Shown in pieces: positions 22,465-43,959 of a stretch of DNA of 64,000 nucleotides; position 1 is the first letter of the stretch; each line of letters begins with the position of its first letter. The DNA comes from an uncultured Gemmatimonadales bacterium (GTDB lineage Bacteria; Gemmatimonadota; Gemmatimonadetes; Gemmatimonadales; Gemmatimonadaceae), in NCBI GenBank assembly GCA_963793305.1, contig CAWBZV010000003.1, forward strand, positions 768,001-832,000, given 5' to 3'. Made by a program: the position numbers and the translations under genes. The notes beneath the pieces were generated by a model. It did no database searches. It saw nothing but the letters and a program-made list of their open reading frames with translations, and was not told the origin of the DNA.

Positions 22465-23256
22465 ATGTCCGTCCGTCTCGCGTCATCGCTGGTGGCTGTG
22501 AACGTGTACCCCGAGCACCGGGCGCACATCGCCAGAGCCGTATGGCCGGTGTCTCGCATCGCGTTTCTGGACTACTGGGACATCGATCGACATCTCCGAC
22601 ACCAGGACGCCACCGAGGCGACGTACCTCGTCTCGATCAATCCCGTGAGTCGCTCCGAGATCAGCGACGTCATTCGCGAAATTCGTCGCGCCCGGCCGGT
22701 CACGCCGATTATCGCCTACGCCACGCTCCTCGACGACTGGGCCGTGGAAGCCGTCCGCGCGATCCAGGCTGGCGCCAACCATCTCGCGCTCCGCGGGTTC
22801 GATGACCTGCGACGCGTCATGTCGCACGTGCACGCCGACGCGCAACTCGTACCCGCGTGCGCGGATACCCTGAAGATCGTTCTCCCCTGGGTCCCGCAAC
22901 CGGCGCACACCGTCGTCGGACTCTGCACCATGCGCGCGGCGCGCACCCTGTCCGTGAACGACGTCGCGCACACGATCGGTACCAGCAAACGCTCCCTGCA
23001 CCGGCAGCTGCACTCGCTCGGCCTGCCCACCCCCGAATCCACCATCAGTTGGTGCCGGCTCTTCGTGGCCGTCTACCTCTTCGCCCTCAAACGCGAGCCC
23101 GTCGACCACGTCGCCGGTGCACTCGGCTTCGGAACCGGTGCGGAGCTCCGCAACATGCTGCGGCGATACACCGGGTGCACGCCCACCGCGACGCGCGACC
23201 CGGATGCCGTCTCGCGGCTGGCCCGACTCTATCGCCAAGCCGGGCGGACCGCATGA
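22465..23256 (+). CDS. AraC-family regulator with receiver-like N-terminus
   Basis: LSVNDVAHTIGTSKRSLHRQL...VDHVAGALGF...LRRYTGCTP. Confidence 0.85.
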   Translation: MSVRLASSLVAVNVYPEHRAHIARAVWPVSRIAFLDYWDIDRHLRHQDATEATYLVSINPVSRSEISDVIREIRRARPVTPIIAYATLLDDWAVEAVRAIQAGANHLALRGFDDLRRVMSHVHADAQLVPACADTLKIVLPWVPQPAHTVVGLCTMRAARTLSVNDVAHTIGTSKRSLHRQLHSLGLPTPESTISWCRLFVAVYLFALKREPVDHVAGALGFGTGAELRNMLRRYTGCTPTATRDPDAVSRLARLYRQAGRTA

Positions 23257-24638
23257 CCACCGAGATCGCACTCGCCGACGGACTGACGCGCGACTACCTC
23301 CTCCACCATCGCGTGTGCCCCACCGGATACGCCGACGGCGGCGCCGTTCGTATCTCGGCCGCGCCCGACGCGCTGCTCGACGACGCGCTCGATGATCTCC
23401 GCTTCGTCTACGGCGCCGAGGTCGTCGTCGAGCCGGCGAGCTTGGGCAACGTCGAACGCGCCATCGAACGGCTCACCACGCGCGCGGGCCGCGACATCGA
23501 GTTGGCGCGCGTCGATCACGAGGACGAGCGCACGGCCAATGTCCGCGACCTCGCGACGCAGCCGCCGGTCGTCCGGTTCGTCAACCTGCTCGTGCGCGAC
23601 GCCTACGACGCCGGCGCGAGCGACATCCATCTCGAATCGGCCCGATCCGGACTCGGCGTCCGGTTCCGGCTGGACGGCGTGCTTGGCCCCGCGCCCGAGC
23701 CGCCGGCCGAGCTAGCCCACGCGGTCGTCTCGCGCATCAAGCTCCTGGCCGAGCTCGACATCGCCGAGCGGCGGCGGCCACAGGACGGTCGCATACGTGT
23801 ACGGCTCGAAGACCGGGAGCTCGACCTTCGCGTGTCGACCGTGCCAACACTCTTCGGCGAAAGCGTCGTGCTCCGACTACTCGATCGCGGCGGTCGACCC
23901 GTCGCACTCGAGGAGCTCGGCATGCCGGCCGGGATCCTGGCGAGCGTCAGCCGCCTCGCCGCGCGGCCCCATGGCATGATCCTCGTGACCGGGCCGACCG
24001 GTAGCGGAAAGACCACGACACTCTACTCCGCACTCCAGCGGCGCGACACGAAGGCCGAGAAAATTATCACGGTCGAGGACCCGGTCGAATATGAGTTGCC
24101 GGGGATCACCCAGGTCCCGGTGCACCGGCAAGCCGGCGTCACGTTCGCCGCCGCGCTCCGGTCCATTCTTCGCCAGGACCCCAACGTCGTCATGCTCGGC
24201 GAGATGCGCGACCCCGAGACGGCCGAAGTCGCGGTGCAAGCGGCCATGACCGGCCACGTGGTGTTCTCGACCCTGCACACGAACGACGCCGTGAGCGCGA
24301 TCCCGCGGCTCGTCGACCTCGGCGTCCCGCCCTATCTCATCGCCGCCACGCTGGACGGCGTACTCGCCCAACGCTTGGTGAGAAAAATCTGCGACGCCTG
24401 TCGCGGCGAGCAATGTCCGGCATGTCGCAACACGGGCTATCGCGGGCGGCTCGGTCTGTTCGAGCTATTCCCCGTCGACGATGAGGCAAAGCAAGCGATT
24501 GTCTCCGGCGCCTCGCGCGCCGATCTCACGGCGCTCGCCCGAACGAAAGGCATGCGAACGCTGGCCGAGGATGGCCAGACGAAAGTGGCGGCTGGGCTCA
24601 CGACTCTCGAGGAGGTACTCCGTGCGGCGGACGCGTAA
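23253..24638 (+). CDS. gspE: T2SS ATPase GspE
   Basis: ASDIHLE, PQDGRI, GPTGSGKTT, TVEDPVE, LRQDP, GEMRD, TGH.VFSTLH, CxxC pair. Confidence 0.95.
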   Translation: MTTEIALADGLTRDYLLHHRVCPTGYADGGAVRISAAPDALLDDALDDLRFVYGAEVVVEPASLGNVERAIERLTTRAGRDIELARVDHEDERTANVRDLATQPPVVRFVNLLVRDAYDAGASDIHLESARSGLGVRFRLDGVLGPAPEPPAELAHAVVSRIKLLAELDIAERRRPQDGRIRVRLEDRELDLRVSTVPTLFGESVVLRLLDRGGRPVALEELGMPAGILASVSRLAARPHGMILVTGPTGSGKTTTLYSALQRRDTKAEKIITVEDPVEYELPGITQVPVHRQAGVTFAAALRSILRQDPNVVMLGEMRDPETAEVAVQAAMTGHVVFSTLHTNDAVSAIPRLVDLGVPPYLIAATLDGVLAQRLVRKICDACRGEQCPACRNTGYRGRLGLFELFPVDDEAKQAIVSGASRADLTALARTKGMRTLAEDGQTKVAAGLTTLEEVLRAADA

Positions 24639-25065
24639 CGCATTTACGCTCATTGAGCTCATCGTCGTTATCGCGATCATCGCGACGCTGGCCGCCGTCG
24701 TGGCGCCGGCCGTGTTCAGAAATGTCGGCGATGCAAAAGTCGGCGCCGCGAAGAGTCAGATCGAAGTCTTCGCGCTGGCGCTCAACGCGTATCGGCTGGA
24801 CAACGACAACTTCCCGACCACTGATCAGGGCCTGGAAGCGCTGCGCACGTCGCCGACCGCCGGCGATCCACCGCGGAACTGGCGCGGGCCATACCTGAGT
24901 CGTGTCGTACCGCTCGATCCCTGGGGCCGGCCCTACGTCTATGTGGCACCCGGCAAAACGAACCCGCAGTCGTTCGATCTCTATACGCTTGGGCGAGACG
25001 GGAAGCCCGGTGGTGATGGCGAGGATGCCGACATCACCTCATGGGGCGGCCCAGTCCAGCCGTGA
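24622..25065 (+). CDS. gspG: T2SS major pseudopilin GspG
   Basis: AFTLIEL, YRLD, PTTDQGLEAL, NWRGPYL, DPWG, DGKPGG.GEDADI; GGAGG + GTG start. Confidence 0.95.
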   Translation: MRRTRNAFTLIELIVVIAIIATLAAVVAPAVFRNVGDAKVGAAKSQIEVFALALNAYRLDNDNFPTTDQGLEALRTSPTAGDPPRNWRGPYLSRVVPLDPWGRPYVYVAPGKTNPQSFDLYTLGRDGKPGGDGEDADITSWGGPVQP

Positions 25066-26249
25066 CGACTTCGGCGTACTCGTATCGCGCCGCGCGCGGC
25101 GATGGCACCGTGGAGCTCGGCACCGTCGATGCCGCGAGTCGGGATGCCGCGTCGAGTGTCCTCTCCGGCCGCGGCCTGTGGGTACTCAACGTCCGGCCCG
25201 CCACGCCAACCCTGACTCGCGCCAAGCTCTCGTCCGGTGAGCTGGCATTGGGACTGAGACTGCTTGGCTCGCTGCTCGACGCGGGACTGCCCGTGGCGCG
25301 CGCACTCGCCGCGTTCGCCGACGTTGCGCCCGATGGCTGGCGGCCCGCGCTCGGCGGACTCACGGCCGGTGTCCGCGAAGGACAGTCCTTAGGCGCCGCG
25401 CTCGGAGCAAGCCCGATCGACATCCCGGCCGTCGTCATCGGCATGGTGCAAGCCGGCGAAGCCGGCAGCGGCCTCTCGGCCGCCGTCATCCGTGCCGCCG
25501 ATCTCATGGAGTCGGCCGCGGCCACGCGTTCGGCAGTGCGCAGCGCGCTCGTCTACCCGGTCGTGCTCACCGTCGCCGGCTCGGGGTCACTCGTGTTGCT
25601 CGTCGGCGTCGTCCTCCCGCGATTCGCGAAGGTGCTCGCCGATCTGGGCGCCGCGCTACCGGCGAGCACGCGCGCCGTGCTCGATATCTCCGCGGTCGTG
25701 CGCGCCGGGGCGATACCGGGCGCAATCGCGTTGGCCTTGGCACTCGGTGCATGGCGGGCATGGGTCGGCACCGCGAGCGGGCGAGCGCGGTGGGACGCAT
25801 GGCTTCTCTCGCTGCCGCTCATCGGTACGATCCGACGTGCCTCCGGGACCGCACGAGTGGGAGCCGCCGTGGCGTCGCTCCTCGACAGCGGCGTGCCGAT
25901 CGCACCGGCGTTGCTCGCCGGAGCGAGAGCGAGCGGGGACGCGGCGCTCGAAGCGCGGCTCATGGAAGCGCGGGCCAGTGTCATCGCCGGGACGCCGTTG
26001 TCGAGCGCCATCGCGGCGAGCGACGCGGCGACATCGACTGTTGTGCGCCTCGTGCGAGCCGGCGAAGAGAGCGGGCGGCTGGCCGAGATGCTGAGTCGGG
26101 GGAGTGTGCTGGAGGCGGAGCGGGCACGGAGGCTCGTGAACGGTGCCGTGAAGCTCTTGGAGCCGGCGCTCATTCTCATGTTCGGCGGCATCGTCGCGTT
26201 CGTCGCCGCGGCACTGCTGCAAGCCGTGTACAGCGTGCGGCCGACATGA
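25062..26249 (+). CDS. gspF: T2SS platform protein GspF
   Basis: GMVQAGEAG, SALVYP, AGEESGRL, LLEPALI. Confidence 0.92.
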   Translation: MTTSAYSYRAARGDGTVELGTVDAASRDAASSVLSGRGLWVLNVRPATPTLTRAKLSSGELALGLRLLGSLLDAGLPVARALAAFADVAPDGWRPALGGLTAGVREGQSLGAALGASPIDIPAVVIGMVQAGEAGSGLSAAVIRAADLMESAAATRSAVRSALVYPVVLTVAGSGSLVLLVGVVLPRFAKVLADLGAALPASTRAVLDISAVVRAGAIPGAIALALALGAWRAWVGTASGRARWDAWLLSLPLIGTIRRASGTARVGAAVASLLDSGVPIAPALLAGARASGDAALEARLMEARASVIAGTPLSSAIAASDAATSTVVRLVRAGEESGRLAEMLSRGSVLEAERARRLVNGAVKLLEPALILMFGGIVAFVAAALLQAVYSVRPT

Positions 26250-26545
26250 ACCGACTCGGTGTCACACTGATCGAGCTCATCGTCGTGCTGGCGATCCTGA
26301 GCGTCATGGCGGGCGTGACGACGCTGGCGTTTCGGAGCGCGGACATGACGCCGCGAGTTGCGCCGTGGGTGAGCGCGATTGCCGCGGCGCGGCGGACCGC
26401 GGTGGACTCGAACCGCACGGTGAGCCTCACCGTGCGGGTAGGCGACAACGTGTATGCGGCGACCGCTCTCCCAGACGGGAGTGTCGTCGCGGACGCAGCC
26501 TTGGGCGTCGACCGGGTCACCGGAGAGGTCACGCGTGCGCCGTAG
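26246..26545 (+). CDS. Minor pseudopilin (GspH-like)
   Basis: MNRLG|VTLIELIVV prepilin motif. Confidence 0.8.
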   Translation: MNRLGVTLIELIVVLAILSVMAGVTTLAFRSADMTPRVAPWVSAIAAARRTAVDSNRTVSLTVRVGDNVYAATALPDGSVVADAALGVDRVTGEVTRAP

Positions 26546-26891
26546 ACCACGTCGCGGGGTGGTGCTGCTGGAAGCGATCGTGGCGCTCACGATCCTGACC
26601 ATCGCCGCGCTGGCCAGCGCCGCGATGGTTCGGCAAGCCGTGGACGGTGTGCGCCGCGCGCAGGAGGCCGAGCACGACGTCCGTAAGGCGAGCGCCTTCA
26701 TGGAGGCGATCGCGCTCTGGCCGCGCGCCGATCTCGACCGGCACCTCGGTAATCGCGCCGAAGGCCCCTGGCGGCTCCAGATCGATCGGCCGGTGCCGAC
26801 GCTATACCTGGTTGCGCTGACGGACTCGCTGGCGCGGCGTGAGCTCGTGCGGACCGCGCTCTACAGGCCGGAGCCGCCCAGTGCGCCGTAG
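26535..26891 (+). CDS. Minor pseudopilin (GspI-like)
   Basis: RRG|VVLLEAIVAL prepilin motif. Confidence 0.78.
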   Translation: MRRRPRRGVVLLEAIVALTILTIAALASAAMVRQAVDGVRRAQEAEHDVRKASAFMEAIALWPRADLDRHLGNRAEGPWRLQIDRPVPTLYLVALTDSLARRELVRTALYRPEPPSAP

Positions 26892-27420
26892 CCGGAGGCG
26901 AGGGTTCACCCTCATCGAGCTCATGGTCGCGATCACGCTGTCCGGCATCGTGCTCCTCGGCGCGCGCGCGCTGTGGGAATCGCTCGCGGGATCCGTCGAC
27001 CGGCTGCGGACCCAGGCGACTGCCGACGCCCGAGACATGAATGGCGAGCGGCTACTGCGGTCGCTCGTGGGCCGGCTCGAGGTCGGCACCGACCAATCGC
27101 ACGAGTTCGCGGGCGATGAGTCCCATGCCCAGTTCACGACGTGGTGCGATATGCCGGCCGGGTGGCAGGAGCGGTGCGACGCGGTGATCGCGATCGAGCC
27201 CGACTCGAGCGCGGGACTGAGGCTCGTCGCGCGACTCTCGACCGGTGATGTCGTCGCGCTCGAGCGCGGGTTCAGCACCGGGAAGCTCCGCTATCTCAAT
27301 GATCCCATTGGCGGGGGCGTGTGGTTCCGGATCTGGGGTCACGGGATCACGGCGCCACTGGCGATCGGCGTCATCACCGATGGCGACACCACGATCGTAC
27401 GGATCGGGGAGCGCGGGTGA
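26881..27420 (+). CDS. Minor pseudopilin (GspJ-like)
   Basis: RRG|FTLIELMVAI prepilin motif. Confidence 0.8.
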   Translation: MRRSRRRGFTLIELMVAITLSGIVLLGARALWESLAGSVDRLRTQATADARDMNGERLLRSLVGRLEVGTDQSHEFAGDESHAQFTTWCDMPAGWQERCDAVIAIEPDSSAGLRLVARLSTGDVVALERGFSTGKLRYLNDPIGGGVWFRIWGHGITAPLAIGVITDGDTTIVRIGERG

Positions 27421-28334
27421 CGACCCGGCGAAACGGCTTCGCGTTGCTCGCGGCGCTCTGGGTGACGGTCGCCCTGAGCGCGATGGCCCTGACGGGCCTC
27501 TTGGTGGCTCGCGAGGTCATGAGCGGCTCAAGAAACCGGATCGCGCTCATGCGCGGCCAGTGGCGGGCCGAGGACTGCCTCGAGCGCGCGCGAGCGGTGA
27601 TCAATGACGCGCTGAGCGGCGGGCACGCGATCCCGCGGCCGGTCGCCGGTGGATGGGAGGCACTCGATCGCGTCGTCGCCGCGTCGCCAGCCATCACCGA
27701 CGCCGCGTGCGACGTGACGCTGGCGCCCGCGGGCATGGCGGTGGACTTGAACACGGCCGATGGCGAGCAACTGCTCGCGCTGTTCCGCGCAATGGGTATT
27801 GGCGAGCCGCGTGCCGACTCGATGGTCGACGCGCTGCTCGACTGGCGCGATGCGGACGACATCCCGCGACCGCTGGGAGCCGAGCGGAGCTGGTATCACG
27901 CGGAGGGGCGGTTCGCGCCGCGCAATGGGCCGTTCGCTGACGTCAAGGAGCTGCGCCGCGTGCGCGGGTTCGAGGATCTGCCGGACTCGATACTCGACGC
28001 GGTGTTCACGGTCGAGCCGGGGCGGATCGTATGGACGCGCGCGCCGCTCGTGGTGCTGGCGAGCCTTCCTGGCATTGGTGAGGAGGCCCTGGCGCGGATC
28101 ATCGAGCGACGCGAGCGCGGCATCTCGGTCGCGGACATGAACGCGCTCTCGGCCGACCTGTCACCCGGCGCGCGACAACTGCTCGTCGCGCGGTATGGCG
28201 ATCTCGCTCGGCTGACGACGGACCGGCCCGACTCATGGATCCTCACCGCGCGTGGGGGCAGCTACGCGATCGAAGTCCGCCTCGCCCCGGCGGGCTCGCG
28301 CGCCGCCATCGTGCGACGCCGGACGACGCCATGA
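27417..28334 (+). CDS. gspK: Minor pseudopilin GspK
   Basis: G|FALLAALW without Glu5, VDLNTA, LLDWRDAD, GAE..Y, PRNGPF, ELRRVRG. Confidence 0.9.
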   Translation: MTTRRNGFALLAALWVTVALSAMALTGLLVAREVMSGSRNRIALMRGQWRAEDCLERARAVINDALSGGHAIPRPVAGGWEALDRVVAASPAITDAACDVTLAPAGMAVDLNTADGEQLLALFRAMGIGEPRADSMVDALLDWRDADDIPRPLGAERSWYHAEGRFAPRNGPFADVKELRRVRGFEDLPDSILDAVFTVEPGRIVWTRAPLVVLASLPGIGEEALARIIERRERGISVADMNALSADLSPGARQLLVARYGDLARLTTDRPDSWILTARGGSYAIEVRLAPAGSRAAIVRRRTTP

Positions 28335-29377
28335 GTCTCACCGTCGGCCTGGCCATCGAGCGCGATCGACTCCGCGCCGTCGGCGTGCGCGGGGCGCGCG
28401 TCCTCTGGGGCGTGGACGCCTCCCTCACCGACTCGACGCCGCTCGCCGACGCACTCACGGAGTTCCTGGCGCAACTGCCGCTCGGCCGATTCTCGCGGCC
28501 ACGGGTCACGATAGCGCTTGGCGCCACCTTCGCGCAAACGAAGCGACTTGCTGGCCTCCCGCCGATCGGTGATGAGCGCCTGTTGGCGCGAACCGTGAGC
28601 GAGCACGCGTCCCGGTTCTTCCTCAAGAACGGCGTCCCGCTCGTGACGACGTCGGTTCGTCTCGACGAGCACGGAAACCCATGGGGCGCCGCGCTGCAAA
28701 AGACCGTCGTCGACACGATCGTGAGCGCGTGCCGCACGAGCCGCCTTCGACTCTCCGGCATCGTGCCGGCAGTCGATGTCGCCAGGACCGAGGTCGCGGC
28801 CCTCGCGCCATTGGGCAGCGAAGCGACGCTGTTCGCGGCGGCGTACGGAGCCGCGGTGACCGCCGGCGCGCTCACGTGGCGCGCGGGAACCACGGACCAC
28901 GAGGTCGCGCCGCGCTGGCGCATGATCACCATAGCGAGCGCCGCGGGAATGGCGCTTCTCCTCGCGATCCTCGCGCCCGGCCTGGGCGCCCGCGTCGCCG
29001 AGCATCGCGCGGTTGCGCATCTGGCGACGATCGCGGCGTCGACGCGAGCGACGCAGCGCGTCGCGCGCGACTTAGGGTTGGTGACCGAGGCCCTCGGCGA
29101 GGTCGCGACGTTCGATCGCGGTCGCCGGCCGGTGACGATGCTGATGGCCGCGCTCGCCAAGGCCTTGCCGGACGGCGCGGCGTTGTTGGCGTTCCACGTC
29201 GACAGCGCGGGCGGTTCCGTTGTCGCCCTCGCGCCGCGCGCCGCTTCGCTGCTCACGCGTCTGGAAAGCGTGTCAGGGCTCGCTTCGCCGGAGATCGTGG
29301 GACCCGTGACCCGCGAGACGGCGGCCGGAAATCAGGTCGAGCGCGTGACGATCCGATTCCGGTGGAGCACGAAATGA
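28331..29377 (+). CDS. GspL/PilN-like assembly protein
   Basis: Cytoplasmic domain, TM, periplasmic LAKALPD...F; operon position. Confidence 0.65.
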   Translation: MSLTVGLAIERDRLRAVGVRGARVLWGVDASLTDSTPLADALTEFLAQLPLGRFSRPRVTIALGATFAQTKRLAGLPPIGDERLLARTVSEHASRFFLKNGVPLVTTSVRLDEHGNPWGAALQKTVVDTIVSACRTSRLRLSGIVPAVDVARTEVAALAPLGSEATLFAAAYGAAVTAGALTWRAGTTDHEVAPRWRMITIASAAGMALLLAILAPGLGARVAEHRAVAHLATIAASTRATQRVARDLGLVTEALGEVATFDRGRRPVTMLMAALAKALPDGAALLAFHVDSAGGSVVALAPRAASLLTRLESVSGLASPEIVGPVTRETAAGNQVERVTIRFRWSTK

Positions 29378-29955
29378 CGACACTCTCCGCGCGCGACCGA
29401 CGCACGCTGCTCGTGGGGAGTGCGGTCATCGCGTCCCTCGTCGTGCTTGCCAAGGGCGTTCCGGCTTGGCGCCAATGGGTGGCCGAGTCACGCTCGGGCG
29501 CCGAGGAGCAAGCGCGGGCGGCCGCGAGCGCGGATGCGCTGCTCGCGCACGCGACGCCGATGCGGGACACGCTCGCCGCGCGGAACGTGCGGTACATCGC
29601 GCTCGCGCCGGCGGTCGTGGCAGGCAATACGCTGGCCGAAGCCTCGGCGACGTTGGCGTCGCTCGTGTCGAGTGCCGCGTCCGCGGCCGGGGTCAAGTTG
29701 GGTGCGGTGCAACTCCGGTCACCGGCTGATACCGGAGGGCGCCGGGCGTTCGTGCGCGTCAGCGTCCACGCCGATCTCGTTGGCGATATCCACGGCGTCA
29801 TGGCCATGCTCGCGATCCTGGAACGCGGGCCCGCGCGACTTCGCGTGCGCGAGCTCACGGTGACGCAGCCGGATGCCAGTGCGCCGGGCGATCGCGTGGA
29901 AGCATTACGGGCGGATCTCACGGTCGAGGGAGTAGCGATGGCAAAGCGCCAATGA
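29374..29955 (+). CDS. GspM-like protein
   Basis: LSARDRRTL + TM; LE....RLRVRELTV. Confidence 0.7.
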   Translation: MTTLSARDRRTLLVGSAVIASLVVLAKGVPAWRQWVAESRSGAEEQARAAASADALLAHATPMRDTLAARNVRYIALAPAVVAGNTLAEASATLASLVSSAASAAGVKLGAVQLRSPADTGGRRAFVRVSVHADLVGDIHGVMAMLAILERGPARLRVRELTVTQPDASAPGDRVEALRADLTVEGVAMAKRQ

Positions 29956-30419
29956 CGCGCGTCGAACGGGTTCTCATGGTCACCACCGCAGCCCTCGCCG
30001 CGCTCGCCGCGGTCGGTTGGTACTCGAACGCTCGCGCCGGAGCGCCAATGGGTGACTCGCTCGCGGGGGCCGCACGCGATGTCGGTGCGGCGCCTGCGGA
30101 ATCGATCGAAGCCGCCGCCGCGCGCGTGGCGGAGACAGACCCGTTTCGGATAGAACGGAAACCCGCCGCGATCGCGTACCGACCCGATCTCGAAGGGGTG
30201 GCGCCACCGCCCAAGCCGCCCAAGCCCCAGCTCGTACTCGAGGGGTTGGTCGGCGGCGCGGCGCTCATCGATGGCGCGCCGGGGCATCCCGCGACCGCCA
30301 TTGTGCACGTCGGCGATACGCTCGGCGGACTGCGCATTCGGCACATCGGCCGCGACACCGTCATCGTGTCGGGCTCGGACACGACCTGGCGACTGACCTT
30401 GAGGCACGCATGGCAATGA
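29952..30419 (+). CDS. GspC/PilP-like protein
   Basis: TM, DPFR, Pro-rich stretch, LVLEGLVG...ALIDG...VGDTLGG..IRHIGRDTV. Confidence 0.6.
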   Translation: MTRVERVLMVTTAALAALAAVGWYSNARAGAPMGDSLAGAARDVGAAPAESIEAAAARVAETDPFRIERKPAAIAYRPDLEGVAPPPKPPKPQLVLEGLVGGAALIDGAPGHPATAIVHVGDTLGGLRIRHIGRDTVIVSGSDTTWRLTLRHAWQ

Positions 30420-31891
30420 TCCGGCACGGACTCGCTGTTCTCGCGATCGCCTCGAGCCTGAGCGCACAGCGAGCCCCGTCGCCGGTGAGCGACGTCGGCG
30501 ACAGCGTCACGATCCACCTCGTGGATGTCGATCTCCGCGTCGCGGTCTCGGCACTCGCGCCATATCTGGACCGGCCGGTCGTCTTCGGCAACGTGCCCGC
30601 GTTACGGGTGACGCTCGAGACGCCGCATCCCGTTCCTCGATCGGATATCGAGCGCCTCTTACGGGGCGTCGTCGAATCCCAAAATATGGAGGTCGTCGTC
30701 GACTCCGCGGCCGGCCTCTATCGAGTCAAGCCGCATGACCCTCTGCCACCGCCGGTCGCGACCTCGCGTGGCACGGGAGCGCATGGCGATGGGCAGGAGC
30801 TCTACGTCATTCATTTGAGCCACGCCCGCGCGGCCAATGTCGCCGCGACGGTCAATGCGCTCTATGGCCACGCGAGCGCGCTCGGCGAGCCGGGCGCGAC
30901 GCGAGAGGGCACGCTCTCGGGTCAGCTGGCGCAGAGCGCGTTTCAACCGGCGCTCGCGCCGCCGCCGACGTCGCCCGGCCCCGGAAGTCTGGCCGGCGGC
31001 AAATCGGCGGCGCTCTCCGGCGAGACCGCGATCATCCCTGATGCCGGGACGAACAGCCTGCTGATCCGCGCCAACCCGGCGGACTACGAGCTCATTGCCG
31101 CGGCGGTCAAGGAGCTCGACATCCGGCCGCTCCAAGTGCTGATCGAGGTGCTGATCGTCGAGATCAGCAAGAACTCGAACTGGACCGCCGGGCTCGGGGT
31201 CACCTTCCCGAATCAACAAGCGAAGGGGACGAGCACATCGATCGGCGGCTCCACGCCGAGCGCGGGGCTCGGCGACTTCGCGTTCAACGTGATGCGGACG
31301 GGGAGTCCGGCGTTCAGCGCGAGCCTCACCGCGGCGGCCGCGAAGGGCGAAGCGCGCATTCTCTCGCGACCCATCGTGTTGGCCGAGAACAACGAGGAGG
31401 CCGAGATCCTGGTCGGGAGCCAGCAGCCGTTCATTCAGGTGCAGCAGACGCAGGTCGGCGCGGTCGCGCAGAATCAGGTCGTGCAGTACCAGGACGTGGG
31501 CACGAAGCTCACGGTGCGTCCCACGATTTCGGCCGATGGGTTTGTGCAACTGCTCCTCACGCAAGAAGTGAATCAGGCGACGACGCAAGTGCAATTCAAC
31601 GCGCCGGTGATTTCGACCCGCACGTTGCGCACGCGGCTCCTCGTGCGGGATAGTCAGACGGTGGTGCTTGGTGGCCTGTCCAGTCGGGAGCGGGACAAGA
31701 ACTCGAGCGGCGTGCCCATCTTGTCGTCGATTCCACTCATCGGCCTCCTGTTCGGGCAACAAGGTCGCACCAACACGGGCACCGAGTTCTTTCTCTTTCT
31801 CACGCCGCACATCGTGCGCGACGATATCGACGCGGCCCGGGTGACGCAGCCGATCGATTCCCTGATGCGGCGGGAGGCGCCCGCGCCATGA
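30410..31891 (+). CDS. gspD: T2SS secretin GspD
   Basis: Signal peptide, TNSLLIR, LDIRPLQVLIEVLIVE, NNEEAEILVG, DVGTKLTVRP, GVPILSSIPLIGLLF. Confidence 0.93.
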   Translation: MAMIRHGLAVLAIASSLSAQRAPSPVSDVGDSVTIHLVDVDLRVAVSALAPYLDRPVVFGNVPALRVTLETPHPVPRSDIERLLRGVVESQNMEVVVDSAAGLYRVKPHDPLPPPVATSRGTGAHGDGQELYVIHLSHARAANVAATVNALYGHASALGEPGATREGTLSGQLAQSAFQPALAPPPTSPGPGSLAGGKSAALSGETAIIPDAGTNSLLIRANPADYELIAAAVKELDIRPLQVLIEVLIVEISKNSNWTAGLGVTFPNQQAKGTSTSIGGSTPSAGLGDFAFNVMRTGSPAFSASLTAAAAKGEARILSRPIVLAENNEEAEILVGSQQPFIQVQQTQVGAVAQNQVVQYQDVGTKLTVRPTISADGFVQLLLTQEVNQATTQVQFNAPVISTRTLRTRLLVRDSQTVVLGGLSSRERDKNSSGVPILSSIPLIGLLFGQQGRTNTGTEFFLFLTPHIVRDDIDAARVTQPIDSLMRREAPAP

Positions 31892-32964: not shown

Positions 32965-32980
32965 CGGTCCGTCGCGTGCT
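32965..32980 (+). promoter_or_regulatory. Predicted sigma54 -24/-12 promoter of the Rhs gene
   Basis: cGGtccgtcgcgtGCt: GG 32966-67, N10, GC 32978-79; GGAGG 33007-11 then GTG 33019; -24 box only partly matches consensus. Confidence 0.55.
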
Positions 32981-33018
32981 TAAGAACGCCTCCGACTCTC
33001 GCGCCCGGAGGCGTGTTC

Positions 33019-36000: not shown

Positions 36001-38574
36001 ACGATCGCGCCGACGTACAACGGCGTGGTGCGCCAGACATCGAGCGTGCTCACCGACTACGACGGGGAAGGCGCCGTTCTCTCGACGCAGATCCAGCCAT
36101 CGCCGGACCCCAACAACATTGAACTGATCACCACGTTCCACTTTTATGACCGCGTCGGGCGGCTGAGCTACACGCAACATCCAGACAATTCGAAGGACAG
36201 CACGTACTACGACGCCGCTGGGAACGTGGATACCATCTATACCCGGCGCGGATACAAGATCCCTCAGGCGTTCGATGCATTGAATCGCATCGTGAAGCGC
36301 ATCGTGCCCTCGGTGTTCTACCCCAAGGACTCGATCGGCATTCCGGCGTTGACGGAGCAGAAGAGCTTCTACCTCACACAGAACCCGCCGTACGGCAATC
36401 TCACGATTCCGGGCGACAGCGCGGCGTTTCGCTATGACGAAGTCAGCAATACCGTCGAGGCGGACAATGCCGATGCGCGGATCAGCCGTGTCTACGACGC
36501 CGCGGGCCGGTTGCTCACCGAGACACAGCGCGTCCGCACGCGTGATGGTCAGAACTTCAATACGCACATCTACACGGTGGGGTACGGCTACGATCGCGAC
36601 AGCCGACGCACACTGGTCGTGCATCCAAGCCAGCTGGCGGCGATCGTCAGCGGCCAGTCCCGCGATACGTCCATCTACGGGTACGACCTGGCATCGCACG
36701 TGAGTACTGTGCGGGACATTCTCGGCGGAACGTTCACCTATGGGTACTCGGCCCGTGGCGATCTCATATCGTTGGCATTCCCCGATGGCGCGACCGAGGA
36801 GCGATTCGGGACCGATGACGACGGGCGCTTGACGAACGATTCGATCGGCCCCCTCAGCGGGGCGGCGAATTCGCGGAAGACGGCGCTGACCTACGATGCG
36901 CGCGGCAAGATCCTGACGGGGGTCAACACCTTCGGCATCCAGGACAACGTATCGGCAACGTATTCCGCCATGGGACACGTCGTCGTGCACAATGCTTCAT
37001 TCATCTTTCCGGCGTACGACGGCAGTCCGCAGCAGAACGGCACGGATGACGAGACGTACACACTGGATCCCCTGGGGAATCAAGTCAGCTCGACCTCGAG
37101 CACCAATATCGCCGTCGGGACCATCTCTGATCCGACGACCAGCCTCGCGTTGGCGGGCTACAACAACCGCATTGGGGAGCAGACGGTGCGTCAGGGAGGG
37201 AGCGCCGGTGTCCATGGCTCAGCCGACGCGCTGTTATACGACGCGGAAGGCAACCTGTACGGGACCTATCAGACATCAATCGTGCAGGGCGACCCCGCGG
37301 TAGATCTCTTCTCGTACTATGGCGCGGACAATCGGCTCCGCATGGCGGACAATCGAACGGTCGCCAATGCGTTCGTCCAGACGCTGACGATTTCGAGCCG
37401 CGCGCTCGAGACCTATCGCTACGACGCGCTCGGCCGCCGGGTGTTCAAGCAAGCCGACGACTGGTGTCCGACCAACACGACGGTCTGGAACTACTGCCAT
37501 CGCGCCACGCTGCGCCGCTTTGTGTGGGACGGCGCGCAAGAGTTGGACGAAATTCAGACGCAGGATACCGCCGTCGTATCGATTGCCGAAGCCGACACCG
37601 GCGTCGTCAAGCTCGGCATCCAATGCAATGGCGTGTGCTCCGACAACAACAAATTCTTCGGTCGAGTGCTGTACACGACCGGATTGACGGTCGACCAGCC
37701 GTTGGCGGTGACGCGTGTGGACTATGCCGACTCGGCGACCGTCGTCAATGGCTTAGCCGGCACGCCGGTGCCGTACTATGTCCACCCGCCACTCACGTTC
37801 GTGCCGGTGTGGAACGCCTACGGCCGGTGGGACGCTGTTCTCGATTACGAGTGCGTGACGATGCCGGGCAGCACGCAGCCGCGCTGCGTCGACTCGCAGG
37901 TCGAACTCGGACTCAATCCATACGACAACCTGCACGTCAACGTCCTCAGTTATATGGGATCGATGTTGGAGGACAAGCGCGATGAGACTGGGACACGATA
38001 CCGGCGGGCTCGCACGTACAATCCGACCACCGGGCTGTTCACACAGGAAGATCCCCTCGGCCTCGCCGGCGGGCTCAACGCCTACGGCTTCGCGGAAAGC
38101 GACCCGGTTAATTATTCCGATCCTTTCGGGTTGTGTCCCTTCGGTCAGGTGGTGTGCAACCTCTTCAATAGTTACGCGAACTGGCGTGACGATCAGGAAA
38201 GTGAGTACAAGGAATTTCACGGCGGCGACCAGGTGGTCGCGCTCGAGGTCCCCGGCATATTTGCCGCTGCCAGCCCCGAAGGCATCGCGGAAGGACTCGG
38301 GGAGATCGGAGAGCAATTCGAAAACATCTCAAACGAACTCAAGACCTCGAATCACTTTCAAGCGGCTCGGATGGAGCAGACGGGCCGCCTGGAGACAGGT
38401 GCCGATCACGCGCATGAGCTCAAGGACTTCGCCAACGGCCTGCGCAACTCCGCGGTCAAACTGAAACGTATCTTGAGTAATCCCAAGCTCGAGGCTGCGG
38501 TTCGTAAAGATGCACAGGAGCTCCTCAGCAACGTCAGCATACTGCGCGACCGTATCATGGAGGCACTGAAGTGA
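33019..38574 (+). CDS. Signal-peptide-bearing Rhs/YD-repeat polymorphic toxin with Ig-like N-terminal domains and Ntox28-like tip
   Basis: Sec signal ...VQTASA|Q; Thr/Ser beta-rich domains; YD repeats; YDALGRR; QEDPLGLAGGLNAYGFAESDPVNYSDPFGL; helical tip DHAHELKDFANGLRN...LSNP. Confidence 0.93.
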   Translation: MLTNCWRFVLVVVCALLVALAGGVQTASAQVVPHPPRPFICMPGQPGCHTYPPSASISPTTETVSSRTLAVTVTLCDSVSLGADSVVFNGTNNTSAFTVTNVTGSGQCAVEKKLTATLPPLNLGANTLVAYVYNDFSGNLTSSIASVTYTYNPPPSVSVTPKGSSLSLPTSASDSVTFTVTSLESGSDSAAFTCSAPGITTSCTVVAGKRLAGGANAPIAVHLNQPAAATGTVTLTATMTGTLGSDNGTINLTLIDRTQVLRIVAGGGIQQVLPSAAIVAPFTVTNYGNLQDTVNLSTTCPGSALSGSCTPSVTSFTLTPGASRAVTVSVAAGTTVGATGTVGLVGALASGGVRDSAYTDITIRAARSHGVELGAVNDFSQQTPALCYARAIVPRAAYECGNLRIAHALPAVRTYNKVRVPTLLYSSQLAHPHPVINAIITLDASQGTPDSVLGQLMDGSGNTLGHGKWAGASFANGASRAVSIGYNASGVTTNEYSWKVQAQAFYPDTMLPYVTNEFYALVSAQASHLGHGWTVAGVESMHVYSCGCSMLWNSADGSAEFYSNQSTGSSSTFAPTSGLLTRPDTMKTDHSTGVLHYIRYAPHGVQVIFDSTGHHLQTRDRLGHVTTFTYVNGTDVATITVPAPGATLTYQFVYDGTTHMLDSVIAPSVGGEPTRATKLTINSAGDVTAIRDPDGMSVTFNYRTGGDSDVITSLTDRRGTYTAFTYDAARELATATVDSTSGGFNLTTSFAGANASTLTAALNQDSVSMLVNGPRTDVSDTARIWTNRFGQPVRLRDALGYETDLTMGNTTYLAEVTRLRHPNGQVLGAVPDPRGNLQSETDSSLVSGGQYATTAYTYDGKFDFVTSITPPLLDATTFTYDTVNGNRLTARNALGDSTTINYFYGNSDSLLSSSQPPHTAKDSIQYDGVFGNVVGEMTPLGYWTLTLLDGYGRDSLAITPLPAADKSHDPTGAGAVRDTTETLYDPLDRPYFTLTIAPTYNGVVRQTSSVLTDYDGEGAVLSTQIQPSPDPNNIELITTFHFYDRVGRLSYTQHPDNSKDSTYYDAAGNVDTIYTRRGYKIPQAFDALNRIVKRIVPSVFYPKDSIGIPALTEQKSFYLTQNPPYGNLTIPGDSAAFRYDEVSNTVEADNADARISRVYDAAGRLLTETQRVRTRDGQNFNTHIYTVGYGYDRDSRRTLVVHPSQLAAIVSGQSRDTSIYGYDLASHVSTVRDILGGTFTYGYSARGDLISLAFPDGATEERFGTDDDGRLTNDSIGPLSGAANSRKTALTYDARGKILTGVNTFGIQDNVSATYSAMGHVVVHNASFIFPAYDGSPQQNGTDDETYTLDPLGNQVSSTSSTNIAVGTISDPTTSLALAGYNNRIGEQTVRQGGSAGVHGSADALLYDAEGNLYGTYQTSIVQGDPAVDLFSYYGADNRLRMADNRTVANAFVQTLTISSRALETYRYDALGRRVFKQADDWCPTNTTVWNYCHRATLRRFVWDGAQELDEIQTQDTAVVSIAEADTGVVKLGIQCNGVCSDNNKFFGRVLYTTGLTVDQPLAVTRVDYADSATVVNGLAGTPVPYYVHPPLTFVPVWNAYGRWDAVLDYECVTMPGSTQPRCVDSQVELGLNPYDNLHVNVLSYMGSMLEDKRDETGTRYRRARTYNPTTGLFTQEDPLGLAGGLNAYGFAESDPVNYSDPFGLCPFGQVVCNLFNSYANWRDDQESEYKEFHGGDQVVALEVPGIFAAASPEGIAEGLGEIGEQFENISNELKTSNHFQAARMEQTGRLETGADHAHELKDFANGLRNSAVKLKRILSNPKLEAAVRKDAQELLSNVSILRDRIMEALK

Positions 38575-39035
38575 ACATAGACCTGTCGCCGTGGAGGGCA
38601 CCGGCGGAGCTCGTCGACGCGATTTGGGCTGCGCGACGCGAGCAGCGGAGGGACCTGCAACCGGCGATCGTGCAACTGCTCGATCACGATAACCCGACCG
38701 TTCGTGAAGAGGCGGTGTCGTTGCTTTTTGTCAAGTGGGCGGATCGCTCGCTTCGTGACCGGCTCATCGGCCTGATGCGATCCGACCCTGATTTCGGGGT
38801 ACGGGCGCGGGCAGCCGGGGCCCTTGGACTGACATCGGACGACCGGAGCCGGCGCCGCGACTGTGAAGTACTCCGGCAGATCGTACTCGATAGGGAAGAC
38901 GACCCGGTCGTCCGTAAGGCGTGTTATGAGGCACTACAAGGAATGATCCACGGCAAGGCAATGCTACTCGACGACGATGTCGATCTCGATGAGGATGTGG
39001 ATTTGGAATGGGTGAAGGCAGCCTGCGGTGACTGA
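38571..39035 (+). CDS. HEAT-repeat immunity protein
   Basis: GTGA overlap with the toxin stop; DHDNPTVREEA, DPDFGVRARAA, DDPVVRKAC repeats. Confidence 0.85.
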   Translation: MNIDLSPWRAPAELVDAIWAARREQRRDLQPAIVQLLDHDNPTVREEAVSLLFVKWADRSLRDRLIGLMRSDPDFGVRARAAGALGLTSDDRSRRRDCEVLRQIVLDREDDPVVRKACYEALQGMIHGKAMLLDDDVDLDEDVDLEWVKAACGD

Positions 39036-39124: not shown

Positions 39125-39137
39125 GCATTCATGGTAA

Positions 39138-39233
39138 TCATTCCGTCACGAGAAAATTGAACTGGCCGAGCCCCTGCGCGCGCGCGAAGTCTGCGGTGCT
39201 GCCGAGGCGGCCCGGTCCGCGCGACGTGATGTA
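39138..39233 (-). repeat. Diverged duplicate of the 3' end of the FkbM gene (43972-44067)
   Basis: YITSRGPGRLGSTADFARAQGLGQFNFLVTE* vs YITSRGPVPLGSTSDFARAQELGQFNFLVTE*. Confidence 0.92.
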
Positions 39234-39562
39234 AGGAAATCGTTCCTGAAGGCATCCATCTCGTGAGCCTCGGTCGCCGTCACGGGCACATTGCGTGTCG
39301 AATCGACCGTCTCCGACGCGAGCAGTTGATCCAAACAGCCGCTCATCCTCGCGCGCTACGCGCGCCGTGCGCGCGATCGACGCCTCGACGTCCACCGGCT
39401 CGCTGGCGGCTTCGACGCTCAACCAGAGGCCGATCCTGGCCCACTCCGCCGCAATCGCGGCCACTGTGTCATTGACTCCGGCGTCGGGCGAATGCTTGGC
39501 AGCTGTCGTCCTCATCTCACTTTGCCTGCGTGCCAGGCCAGGCATCGAGCGCCGTCACCGCG

Positions 39563-40225
39563 GGCGCGCTCGAAGATAAGTTGGATGCTGCAGGTACGGT
39601 GAATCGCCGAGCGCGAACTTACGATCCTCTCACGGGGCGGCTTACGCAGGAGGATCCGGCCGGGTTAGCTGGAGGGCTGAATGAGTACGGTTTTGCAGCC
39701 GGTGATCCGGTCAACTACAGTGATCCGTTCGGCCTGTGTCCACCATGCGACGGCAATGGCGTGTCGCCCCAGCGCCACCATACACCGACCGCTGACGAAG
39801 AGGCATTGCAGGGCCCCGGACTGCTTGATCCTGTCGCAATCGGGACTGGGTTCTTGGCGGGTCCGGTGGATGCTGCGATCACTGGGGCGATAGAACGCGC
39901 TGGTGCGGATGCTGCAGCCACATCGGCTGCCAAAGCGGGCACCAAGGTGTATCGGGTTTTCGGCGGGGAGGCGAAGCCCATGGGTCGCTATTGGACTCCC
40001 GTAAATCCCGCAGAAGTAGCAGGCTTCCGGGCTGCGGCGGGGCTGCCAGTCGAGAACACGGGCCGATTCGTGATCGAAGGGGTGCTGCAGGATGCTACCG
40101 GAGTGCAGGTAGGGCGTGCGGCGGCCGGTGCAGGCGGTAGGGGTGGGATCCCTGAGTTCTTGGTTCCCGCGCCGGCGAAACAGATTCAAATTATAAACGT
40201 GTCTGGCGCGAACCCACCATTCTGA
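39563..40225 (+). pseudogene. Orphan Rhs core fragment + toxin tip 1 (ADP-ribosyltransferase-like, tentative)
   Basis: LEDK...RRARTYDPLTGRLTQEDPAGLAGGLNEYGFAAGDPVNYSDPFGLC mirrors 37957-38136; tip VYRVFGG...GRYWT..P...GLP..N...GGIPEF. Confidence 0.88.
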
Positions 40226-40232
40226 GGGGGGC

Positions 40233-40622
40233 ATGAGCGACAAGGGTCCAGATTTCTTCCTTGGCTCGAGCGACAGCCGCGGTGACTTTGCGCGCGCGCG
40301 TGCAGCATCGGCGCGCGCGCGCCTCGCCGGGCCGAACAACGTTCAGTATCTGTGGATTCGCGTTGAGCCGGCGATAATCGGACAGCCGTACGGCTTAGGC
40401 GGAGCGGATATTCACGACCTGATAATCGCTCCGCACTACGACGGCAGTACCTTGTTCCCGATCAAGGAGTTTCCCATGCCTGTTGTCGTTTACCGTGCAT
40501 TAAGCGATCGGGTGTTCGAGACACTTCGATTCGGTGAAGAAGACGTCTCTAACATCGCATGGGGAGAGCTGTACCGGACGCGCGACGCGGCGGTAGCCGC
40601 CTCGGGGGGCGAAACTCTCTGA
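40233..40622 (+). CDS. Putative cognate immunity protein of tip 1
   Basis: Starts 7 nt after the tip 1 stop with GAGG RBS; small alpha/beta protein. Confidence 0.72.
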   Translation: MSDKGPDFFLGSSDSRGDFARARAASARARLAGPNNVQYLWIRVEPAIIGQPYGLGGADIHDLIIAPHYDGSTLFPIKEFPMPVVVYRALSDRVFETLRFGEEDVSNIAWGELYRTRDAAVAASGGETL

Positions 40623-40677
40623 CGCCACGCTACCTGCAACAAGAGGACAGCGTCTATCCATTTTGCTACGAGTGCGT

Positions 40678-41019
40678 ATGAAAGACCGGTCTTCCAACGA
40701 GCGTCGTGAGCGGCGCGTCGAGTTTCTGGGCGAGCAAGATGGTCCACCGGAGCGCGAACTCAAAGCGCTTCTGCAGAAAGAACTTCGTCGATTCCCTACG
40801 GTGCGGCGAGCCTACCTTGCGCGCGTCGGGTTTGCACCGGATGCTGCAGTATCCGTGGCGTTGTGCATTGCTCCGAGCTCAAAGAATGATCAGGCCATAG
40901 TTCAGACAGTCAGTCGTGTGTTTGGAGCGTACTTCGCTTCTGAGGCTCATCTCGACATCGTCTTTCTTGATGCCGAACAGGAAGAAGATCTGAGACGCGT
41001 CTGTGGTTCGTTCCTCTAA
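40678..41019 (+). CDS. SseB C-terminal-like domain protein (probable orphan immunity)
   Basis: FLGEQDGPPERELK...VRRAYLARV...LDIVFL. Confidence 0.65.
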   Translation: MKDRSSNERRERRVEFLGEQDGPPERELKALLQKELRRFPTVRRAYLARVGFAPDAAVSVALCIAPSSKNDQAIVQTVSRVFGAYFASEAHLDIVFLDAEQEEDLRRVCGSFL

Positions 41020-41169: not shown

Positions 41170-41590
41170 ATCAGGGCCGCGCCGTGGACAGAGGGGTGGT
41201 CGTCCCACTGACTGAGGCTCGCAGCCTGGGTGTGTTTGCGGACCTCCCCCCGTACACCGCGTGTGACGACCGTGTGTCTCCTCGAGCGTCCACGGCGCAT
41301 TCCGGATCGCTAGGTCTCTCGTCTCACGCGGAATAGCTCGTGATCAGTTGTCAAACAGCGCCGAAGAGCTGCGTGCGTAGTGGGACCTCCACGCGACGAT
41401 CAAAACCTCGGTGCTCGGCGGGTCACGCCGGCACGACACATCTTCATAGACGCTTCGGATCCGAGGGAGACCTAGACGGTTGTATGACGACGGTCACCTG
41501 CGCGAACAGCCAGGGCCGCAAGGAACTTGAAGGTCGAAGCATCTCCCTCCACGCTCGGCTCACCACCCGTACCTTCGTCTTCTCCTCCGT
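41170..41590 (-). ncRNA. Candidate structured RNA downstream of the IS110 recombinase
   Basis: Inverted repeats 41179-41189/41288-41298 (11/11), 41310-41320/41465-41475, 41449-41457/41535-41543; no credible ORF. Confidence 0.45.
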
Positions 41591-42858
41591 TCATGCCGCT
41601 CGATACGGCGACTCACGCTGGAGCACCTGCCACCGCCCGGCGTCGAACGGTTCTGCGGTCTGCATGATATGCAACAACATCGGGACGAGCTTCCGGGCGA
41701 TCGCACACACGGCGCTCACCTTGGATCCGCCGTTTCGCGCGACCAGCGCGACGTACTGCTCATGACACAATCCACCCGTCCGGCAGCATCGGCCCGCGAG
41801 CAGGAAGAGCTGGCGTCGGAGCGCCGGCCGCCCGCGCTTCGTCTGTCGGATCCGACTGCGGACGGACGTTCCGCTTTCCTTCCCCGCCAGGTTCATGCCG
41901 GCGAGCTTCAGCACCTGGCGCGGCGAGACGTAGCTCGCCGGCGTGCCGAGTTCGGCGACGAGGGTCGAGGCGCAGACGACGCTCACACCCGGCACCGTGG
42001 TTAAGGCGGCGACGGCCGTGATCTCCTGGGCGAGCTCCGTCAACTGAGCCTCGACCGCCCCGATGTGAAGCCGGACGATCGTCCACCGGGCGAGGAGACG
42101 CCGGATCTCCTGACGGCGGGCACCGCGATCGTCGACCACTCCGATCGTCAATGCCGCGGCCGTCAGGAACGCGTTGATCCGGTCTGGCGCGAAATGGTTG
42201 TGCGAGACCTTGCGGATGAGCGCTCGTACACGCATCGGTCGCTCGGCATCGAGCTCCGCCGGCGTCGACCAGTGCCGGAGCAGCGCGATCGGCGTGCAGT
42301 ACTTCACGTCGGTGAACGTGGCGGTGAACTCCGGCCAGACGACGTCGAGGACGCTCAAGAGTCGGTTCTTGAGTCGCGTCTCCTCGACGGCGAGCCGCTG
42401 GCGCTCGGTCGTCAGGGCCCGAAGGGCGATCGCGCGCGGCTCAAGAAGGGCGTAGCTGACGAACAGACCGTCGCTCACGAGCCGACAGATCAGGCTAGCG
42501 TCTTTCGCATCGTCCTTCCGTGGGCTGTTGTCTTCCATCTCCTTGAGCCGCTTCGTCAGAGCCGAGAGCACCGTGACCACGCGTAGCCGCGCCGGTGCAG
42601 ATCGGCGGCGAAGGTCTGCCCATGGTGGCCCGCGAACTCGATGCCCACGAGCATCCGTTCGCGGGGCACGTTGGGGAACAGTGCGGTGAGATGTGCGTCA
42701 GCAGCATCGAACCCGCCGCGACTCACCGGCACTGTAATGGCCTTGGTGCGACGGCTGTCCGGCCCGCGTGCAACGAGCATGTGAAAAGTCTTGCCGGTGT
42801 CGACACCCACATGGACGCAAAAGGTACGGGCGTACGCGAGCTTGTCGTCGGCGTGCAT
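41591..42858 (-). CDS. IS110 DEDD recombinase/transposase, one frameshift near 42580
   Basis: VGVDTGK, GIEFAG, KDDAKDA; PGVS...LVAELG, KESG, TKRGRPALR, AIARKL. Confidence 0.92.
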
Positions 42859-42869
42859 GGCGCGGGCGA

Positions 42870-43055
42870 GTAGAGTGTGGTAGCGTCAGCCGGGGGAGGC
42901 CAGACTCTCTCACCCGTGAGAATGTTGCCGCTACACTAATGCACGCTGCATACCACACCTCGCGATCACCAGCGCTCGATCAATGATCGACGGCAAAACA
43001 AAACCCAATGTCGGTGTGCAGCGCTCTATAGTGGCTGCACACTAACATCGGGAGA
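42870..43055 (-). ncRNA. Candidate bridge-RNA-like structure upstream of the IS110 recombinase
   Basis: About 19-bp hairpin 43004-43052 with G-U pairs, then stem gtgtggta/taccacac enclosing a large internal loop and an inner tctca/tgaga hairpin. Confidence 0.5.
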
Positions 43056-43062
43056 TAGATGT

Positions 43063-43599
43063 GTAAATTACTCGGACCCATTCGGTCTGAGCCCATGCCC
43101 TCCAGACAACGACTGCGGCATCAGCGCGAGCGACGCACTCGCGGCTCTCACGGGCGCGGGTCGGCTCCTTCAGCCCGCGCAAGGACCTCTCGAAGTGGCT
43201 GGTACGATTGCGGTCGCACCGCTGGCCGGGGGAGTGGGGGCAGCCGAGGAGATCAGCGGTGCCGTGATTGCGCTCGGACAGACGCTGAGGTCCGGAGCCG
43301 GTAGCGGGGTTCTGACAGCGGCGGGAGTAGCGGGACGAGTGGCGTCTGCGACCGGCGGCGCCGTTTCCCAGCTAGCCAAGTCGGAAGGTTTCAAAGTCAC
43401 GGTGGACGCCGGGCGAGCTATTGTCGCTAGAATTAAGTCTACTGGCGACATCCGTGTGGGTATCGACGGCATCGGCTCACTGACACGCGAGGGCGTAGTG
43501 TCCGCGAATCGAGCGCTCACCCATCTGAAGAACCTGTCGAGCCAAGAGATAATTGGTCTCATCAACAAGGCTCGTGAATTGCTCGCAGCGCCACGCTAA
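43063..43599 (+). pseudogene. Orphan Rhs toxin tip 2, truncated at the VNYSDPFGL junction
   Basis: gta aat tac tcg gac cca ttc ggt ctg in frame with ORF 43195-43599; tip ...IRVGIDGIGSLTREGVVSANRALTHL (possible RNase fold). Confidence 0.82.
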
Positions 43600-43623
43600 C
43601 CAACCTCTGACGCCTTATCTCTC

Positions 43624-43959
43624 ATGGATCGCGCCGTCCTGCCGCAGGCACTCAATGGTGGTTACATCGAGGAGTACGAGTTCGACCTGCGTCGGAATCT
43701 ATTCTCCATGCGAGTCCATGTTCTCGACAACGATCTGCTGTCCAGCTATAACGTGCGGTTCGAGAAGTTGAGTCAGTTCGCGATGGATAGTGAGAGCCTG
43801 GGTGACAAAGAGCGACTCGAACTGACCGAGATCTGGATCGACTCGACTCCGGAGTCGTCCAGTACCGAGGAGTGGAGTATTACGATAAGCATGTGGGACA
43901 TTACTCACATTCGCCTGCGGTGCGCCATCATCGTGATCGATGGCGCACCGCTGCGCTGA
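43624..43959 (+). CDS. Putative cognate immunity protein of tip 2
   Basis: Acidic beta-rich 111-aa ORF 24 nt after tip 2; lower GC. Confidence 0.68.
   Translation: MDRAVLPQALNGGYIEEYEFDLRRNLFSMRVHVLDNDLLSSYNVRFEKLSQFAMDSESLGDKERLELTEIWIDSTPESSSTEEWSITISMWDITHIRLRCAIIVIDGAPLR

Follow-up and report, generated by a model that had tools for sequence, protein, structure and literature searches.

In a 64,000-nucleotide stretch of an uncultured Gemmatimonadales bacterium of the family Gemmatimonadaceae, a type II secretion system (T2SS) operon adjoins the gene of a large Rhs protein with a predicted signal peptide, and this pairing recurs with one particular secretin clade of the order. The stretch, hereafter the window, covers positions 768001-832000 of contig C3 in the 5.7-Mb source genome (G000; C-numbers denote its contigs). 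The association between the T2SS and Rhs genes is not a product of chance and, judged from sequence, the operons of this clade probably export the Rhs proteins conserved beside them as antibacterial polymorphic toxins, a reading to which we assign a probability of about 0.7. Gene content, coupling, clade-specific linkage, promoter-like motifs and polymorphism of the toxin tips are direct observations. The T2SS-Rhs system is real, widespread and specific; its parts are known, and the novelty lies in the dedicated secretin clade and in the built-in sigma54 relay.

The survey gathered secretin matches in 60 relatives and in 350 genomes belonging to the order, fetched the DNA around them and mapped its genes; one unpublished genome (G012) enters the tallies only. 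In a quick IQ-TREE run on 99 GspD secretins (three short rows skipped), the window secretin falls into a clade of 68 rows, named clade A, with an SH-aLRT support of 96. Among loci with at least 5 kb of downstream sequence (16 shorter clade-A loci and 6 shorter others were left out), Rhs genes are present in 43 of 52 clade-A loci and in none of 25 loci with other secretins. Likewise, an activator gene lies directly 3' of gspD in 51/64 clade-A loci versus 0/31 other loci. When the 1090 proteins flanking the operon in 60 genomes were clustered, the recurrent families other than gsp were Rhs, in 43 genomes, and the activator, in 39; the cluster ranking next was present in 5. At the scale of whole genomes (n = 350), the Rhs family occurs in at least 35 of 53 clade-A genomes, at least 9 of 78 with another T2SS and at least 25 of 219 without GspG, all three figures being lower bounds because the search, which scored no more than four candidates in each genome, overlooked 11 clade-A genomes that carry an Rhs at the locus.

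Linked loci are found in 35 of 39 genera, including three genomes added from other searches. The coupling that the first-pass annotation had proposed from the window is thereby strongly supported, both by synteny that is specific to a clade and by shared sigma54 control; its T2SS-Rhs synteny recurs across relatives, and the Rhs-linked secretins belong to a single clade. When the search was anchored on Rhs instead, gsp genes were present in 18 of 78 metagenome loci, most of them short, and in 6 of the 14 with at least 3 kb of upstream sequence. Beyond the order, matches came from 2 of 102 genomes, and Rhs was seen in neither within the DNA examined, while a plasmid search yielded one weak and unrelated Rhs.

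The window operon encodes the components expected of a T2SS, namely GspE, GspF and GspD, GspG with GspH/I/J/K, and GspL/M/C, the prepilin peptidase being encoded elsewhere in the genome (Table 1). Pfam and NCBIfam scans bear out the annotated order gspE-G-F-H-I-J-K-L-M-C-D, with gspH, gspI, gspL and gspC assigned weakly or by position. The annotated overlap of all operon genes also stands, since, with the starts chosen, every one of the 12 junctions that lead from araC to the gene behind gspD is an overlap of 4-25 nt, and none of the frames is interrupted. T2SS models are the best matches of GspE, GspF and GspD, yet scores lie under the equivalog cut-offs; T2SS GspD structures are the top PDB matches of the secretin, and its nearest named relatives belong to Gemmatimonadaceae and Gemmatimonadales genomes. 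The T2SS genes had been placed directly upstream of Rhs; the operon does adjoin Rhs, but the gene of a sigma54 activator intervenes after gspD. Of 60 clade-A genomes, 4 have an AraC-family leader gene; a sigma54 site 5' of gspE stands in its place in many of the rest. The short secretin was also considered as a trait specific to Rhs-linked systems and was rejected, as an Rhs-free sister group, in which gspE follows gspD, aligns over an equal length.

The Rhs protein agrees with its first description, a product of about 1850 residues with Ig-like domains: it has 1851 residues, Ig-like beta-sandwiches in the structure model and a TIGR03696 core above cut-off. Its N-terminus is hydrophobic and ends in ASA-Q, a signal peptide being predicted by a heuristic; this heuristic is passed by the window protein and by 21 of 35 linked loci (no start was found in 10 of the 35) versus 399 of 2153 background proteins. 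The window Rhs has no lipobox, one of the 25 candidate starts scored has one, and no anchor was seen. In the family (46 homologue matches), C-termini are variable throughout, each protein holds 13-42 cysteines, most N-termini show by eye a stretch resembling a signal peptide, Ig-like arrays vary in length and proteins span 1600-3000 residues. The structure model, which covers 765 mature residues at a mean pLDDT of 80.5 and is unreliable over the first 122, consists of beta-sandwiches followed by YD strands, and Foldseek relates it to ciliary central-apparatus proteins, teneurins and Rhs shells. Profile matches include RhsA (7q97) and the bacterial teneurin-like 9ifo and 9pt5; no TIP or propeller domain is apparent in the modelled residues, and similarity to the latter is partial. 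For the conserved domain preceding the shell, an atlas search yielded only scores below 0.8 and hence no lead.

The C-terminal tips are polymorphic on a conserved body, 75 tips falling into 69 clusters. The window tip is a putative Ntox28-like tRNase, as judged from its family, in which 20 of 24 aligned homologues match Ntox28 and the H and E of the motif are nearly invariant; a single-sequence PDB search with the tip returned no useful match. A toxin system is indicated by the polymorphic tips, the DHxxE motif of Ntox28 type and the coupled partner genes, which such systems typically have. In keeping with the HEAT immunity gene and orphan DPFGL cassettes annotated behind Rhs, the HEAT gene overlaps the Rhs stop and two cassettes are present, the second retaining only about 10 core codons. 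A HEAT homologue occurs 3' of a related tip in two metagenome loci. The 97-nt fkbM duplication that encloses the orphan array fits a replacement of tips by recombination. A small open reading frame 3' of Rhs was discarded as evidence of immunity: it is found in 34 of 38 loci, but also at 208 of 300 random positions.

Table 1. Predicted features of the T2SS-Rhs locus and of the adjoining orphan array (window coordinates).
Feature	Position	Strand	Support or remark
araC-family regulator, first gene of operon	22465..23256	+	PF12833
gspE, ATPase	23253..24638	+	PF00437; best match TIGR02533
gspG, major pseudopilin	24622..25065	+	PF08334; TIGR01710 159.9, passing the cut-off of 88.85
gspF, platform	25062..26249	+	PF00482
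gspH, gspI, gspJ and gspK, minor pseudopilins	26246..26545, 26535..26891, 26881..27420 and 27417..28334	+	N-methyl motifs, PF21687 (GspK), NF037980
gspL, gspM and gspC-like	28331..29377, 29374..29955 and 29952..30419	+	PF05137, PF10741, NF040576, weak NF041515 (GspC, E 7e-4)
gspD, short secretin (493 residues)	30410..31891	+	One Secretin_N repeat detected; marker of clade A
Sensor-less sigma54 activator (enhancer-binding protein)	31888..32925	+	PF00158, PF02954, sequence; AAA+ with GAFTGA, Fis-type helix-turn-helix; overlaps gspD
Predicted activator binding site	32840..32892	+	Four repeat half-sites, two per orientation, in 3' end of activator gene
Predicted sigma54 -24/-12 promoter of rhs	32965..32983	+	GG-N10-GC kept, -24 box deviant, 9.8 bits
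Rhs, 1851 residues from GTG 33019	33019..38574	+	Predicted Sec signal peptide, Ig-like domains, YD shell, DPxG core end, C-terminal Ntox28-like toxin (38140..38571)
HEAT-repeat protein, predicted immunity	38571..39035	+	PF13646; overlaps Rhs stop
97-nt copy (87%) of flanking fkbM 3' end	39137..39233; second copy 43971..44067		Brackets orphan array
Orphan cassette 1: core remnant, C-terminal domain and small partner gene (40233..40622)	39530..40622	+	TIGR03696; weak TNT-like atlas lead, 0.90
SseB_C-like small gene, possible orphan immunity	40663..41019	+	PF14581, E 2e-4, under cut-off
IS110-family transposase, two open reading frames, within orphan array	41591..42858	-	
Orphan cassette 2 (ending at 43599) with small partner gene (43624..43959)	43066..43959	+	Partner weakly YxiG-like

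The activator gene is separated from the Rhs start by 87-93 nt, and the position of a predicted sigma54 promoter between the two suggests a cascade in which the machine is made first and the toxin afterwards. Where Rhs lies on the same strand, 28 of 35 loci have a -24/-12 pattern behind the activator; the figures are 1 of 7 with inverted Rhs and 2 of 6 without Rhs, shuffled sequences giving a mean of 3.8 in 48. The half-site cluster recurs only once elsewhere in the genome, 5' of an unlinked Rhs paralog (C3:166.4 kb) that has a sigma54 site of its own; since the repeat pattern was derived from these two places, this result is informative only as to exclusivity. Sigma54 sites are present at two further Rhs paralogs as well, together with a repeat of another kind. 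Among 20 regions upstream of the operon, a sigma54 site is found at gspE in 10, a second activator in 8 and Rhs in 13; 11 of these regions had been picked for a known Rhs, which leaves 2 of 9 in the remainder, and in several cases the upstream Rhs genes each carry a sigma54 site. The window activator shares only 45% identity with the activators of genomes in which GspE is 96-98% identical. This suggests a joint exchange of activator, binding sites and Rhs as one unit.

At about a dozen loci a AAGTCGTTG-type motif, presumably resembling an IHF site, recurs some 40 nt 5' of the sigma54 site; it was not seen in the window. At locus L255, a close relative of the operon, an AraC-like gene takes the place of the sigma54 activator between gspD and Rhs.

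Linkage of the clade to Rhs and the usual presence of its own terminal activator gene make a dedicated, co-regulated export machine likely. More specifically, and at somewhat better than even odds, this T2SS lineage may have been specialised as a delivery machine for polymorphic toxins, a dedicated 'Rhs secretion system' for cocoons of about 1500-3300 residues, in which a sensor-less activator hard-wires transcription of the toxin to synthesis of the machine and is exchanged as one set with its binding sites and the Rhs gene. Transcription of the operon, here probably from an AraC-led promoter and in many relatives from a sigma54 promoter, would yield the sensor-less activator as the product of its last gene. 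The activator would then bind the repeats in the 3' end of its own gene and switch on rhs from its sigma54 promoter, the cargo thus coming after the machine; it may also switch on dispersed Rhs paralogs bearing the same repeats. Having crossed the inner membrane by the Sec route, Rhs would fold in the periplasm with disulfides, forming a YD cocoon around a self-cleaved tip, and the folded protein would be pushed through the secretin of the operon. The Ig-like domains could bind targets, the Ntox28-like tRNase tip would act in the target cytoplasm and the HEAT protein would protect kin. Tips would likely be swapped by recombination, the orphan array being left behind.

Several observations weigh against export by a dedicated T2SS. 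Relatives are not independent samples, and the counts given above therefore overstate significance. Nine of the 52 clade-A loci lack Rhs in the fetched 20 kb, two of these having one further upstream, and in seven loci the next Rhs is inverted. The window rhs promoter misses the strict pattern and scores under all 27 training sites, and the pattern also appears on the reverse strand in 13 of 48 loci. At 22.2 bits, the tip taken alone falls short of the 25 bits required for Ntox28, and its alignment with CdiA (5j5v) is weak. The genome holds a second T2SS. 'Self-contained', as the system was called in the first-pass annotation, is too strong a term: no prepilin peptidase gene gspO lies inside the operon, the single PF01478 gene of the genome being unlinked (C5:358 kb); RpoN is needed; and at least five Rhs-family paralogs are located elsewhere in the genome, one of them with the upstream repeats of the window. 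In the assembly, rpoN (C22:20210-21659) is divided into two reading frames. Split frames are also found in gspG on C6 and in Rhs paralogs on C5 and C12, which suggests assembly indels.

In an alternative account, the genes travel together and are co-regulated, but Rhs can leave the periplasm in another way (by lysis, in vesicles or through the type IV pilus machine with PilQ), the T2SS being helpful, incidental or devoted to another substrate. Neither clade A nor GspG was detected in 25 of the 69 Rhs-family genomes, and in five of these, which are nearly complete (3-30 contigs, 96-100% completeness), GspG was not found and the sole intact secretin is PilQ-like. Long open Rhs frames persist in several genomes without GspG, genus g70 has Rhs in five genomes without clade A, and activator-Rhs pairs occur without gsp genes (in G155 and at C3:1393 kb of the source genome). 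However, no recurring neighbour emerged as an alternative substrate in the 60 genomes, and the frequency of the Rhs family, on the lower bounds given above, is 12% with other T2SSs and 11% with none but 66% with clade A. In a FastTree phylogeny of 81 Rhs rows, moreover, T2SS-unlinked proteins are interspersed among linked ones and form no branch of their own, and deletion remnants fuse the end of gspD to a broken Rhs, as fits joint decay. Scattered unlinked Rhs and remnant loci favour a history in which the T2SS may have been lost repeatedly, and exit by another route is considered unlikely.

At L054, L125, L128, L132 and L134, a truncated gspD lies directly against an Rhs or Rhs fragment of opposite orientation, which looks like a deletion of the middle part of an Rhs-T2SS island. 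Additional or incomplete copies of gspD occur close to Rhs arrays at L097, L106, L230 and L281, and L097 includes a degraded gspD-activator-Rhs unit in tandem repeat.

It is very improbable that Rhs is an ordinary effector of the genome's type VI secretion system (T6SS), with the T2SS as a bystander. A T6SS is encoded, unlinked, on contig C5 (TssC, Hcp, VgrG, PAAR, TssM), and most solved Rhs relatives in the profile search are T6SS effectors; yet the N-terminus of the protein resembles a signal peptide and has no PAAR or VgrG match, nor an N-terminal linkage of the PAAR/VgrG/Eag type, and near the operon nothing beyond gsp, Rhs and activator recurs in more than 5 of 60 genomes. The first-pass annotation had noted no T6SS gene near Rhs, and PAAR and VgrG were indeed not seen among the 68 window proteins scanned.

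Other genes of the same genome were also noted. At C12:308-327 kb (L007), genes for a 1832-residue protein and an Rhs-core protein lie beside a 2284-residue gene, in a layout that we take to resemble a Tc-like cluster, with no relation to the T2SS family. In the window, VirB8/VirB9-like and VirB4/TraG-like type IV secretion genes (9354-14245, minus strand) and, at 298-2210, an IstB-type ATPase with an integrase-domain gene possibly belong to an integrated conjugative element. Gas vesicle genes (GvpL/F, GvpK) are found behind an ArsA-like ATPase at 58025-62260 on the plus strand.

How Rhs and teneurin-like toxins with signal peptides cross the outer membrane of Gram-negative bacteria is an open question (for teneurin-like proteins, according to the available text of PMC13018210), and the locus names a candidate machine. 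Should export by the operon hold, the Gsp T2SS would count among those secretion systems to which a polymorphic toxin array is linked, the case would bear on the size limit of secretin cargo, and a little-cultured bacterial order would gain its first antagonism system. The operon-terminal activator would then provide a simple circuit that places machine before cargo.

Compared with the canonical Gsp T2SS of E. coli, Klebsiella, Vibrio and Pseudomonas, the window system shares the GspC-M set with GspG and GspK pseudopilins and differs in its E-first order, the absence of gspO from the operon and the terminal sigma54 activator; its secretin has 493 residues versus 620-650 in full-length solved GspD chains. 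The toxin tip aligns its Ntox28-type DHxxE with that of CdiA-CT/CdiI of E. coli 536 (PDB 5j5v, E 0.03), but it is carried by Rhs and not by a CdiA protein of a type V secretion system (T5SS). The CdiI immunity protein of that strain presumably has a HEAT-like fold, and its CdiA, as we understand it, has a C-terminal CysK-binding motif, which is absent from the window tip. Among large Rhs proteins, WapA of Bacillus presumably needs no outer-membrane exit, the cell having a single membrane.

Myxococcus Rhs4 and Rhs5 and Bacillus WapA resemble the window protein as large signal-peptide Rhs proteins of T6SS-independent antagonism; Rhs4/5 have a role in kin discrimination and a presumed location at the surface, their outer-membrane exit not being given in the available text (PMC10433427). 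Bacterial teneurin-like proteins are likewise YD-shell toxins with Sec signals and polymorphic tips, but lipoprotein signals are predicted for them in Gram-negatives and, in the text available, the delivery machinery was not obvious to the authors (PMC13018210). The signal-peptide RHS polymorphic toxins of Zhang et al. 2012 share the toxin-immunity order, orphan cassettes and the Ntox28 [DN]HxxE tip; the ancestral Sec route is there named 'Type II', and the neighbours named in the part of the paper available are T5SS, T6SS, type VII secretion system, PVC and MuF genes, not gsp operons (PMC3482391).

The first-pass annotation knew of no characterised example of a T2SS that serves an Rhs toxin, and this holds in part. 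A full-text literature search, whose reach excluded most subscription papers and the supplement of Zhang et al. 2012, found no description of a gsp operon linked to rhs genes. On the other hand, bacteriocin Bcn-A of Xanthomonas perforans is a 1398-residue Rhs/YD protein with an immunity gene, and an xpsD mutant no longer shows its extracellular activity, a precedent for an Rhs activity that depends on a T2SS (PMC7259588). In the available text of that paper, no gsp operon or sigma54 activator is described at bcnA and no signal peptide is reported, whereas in the system described here a specific T2SS clade is tied to Rhs across 35 genera.

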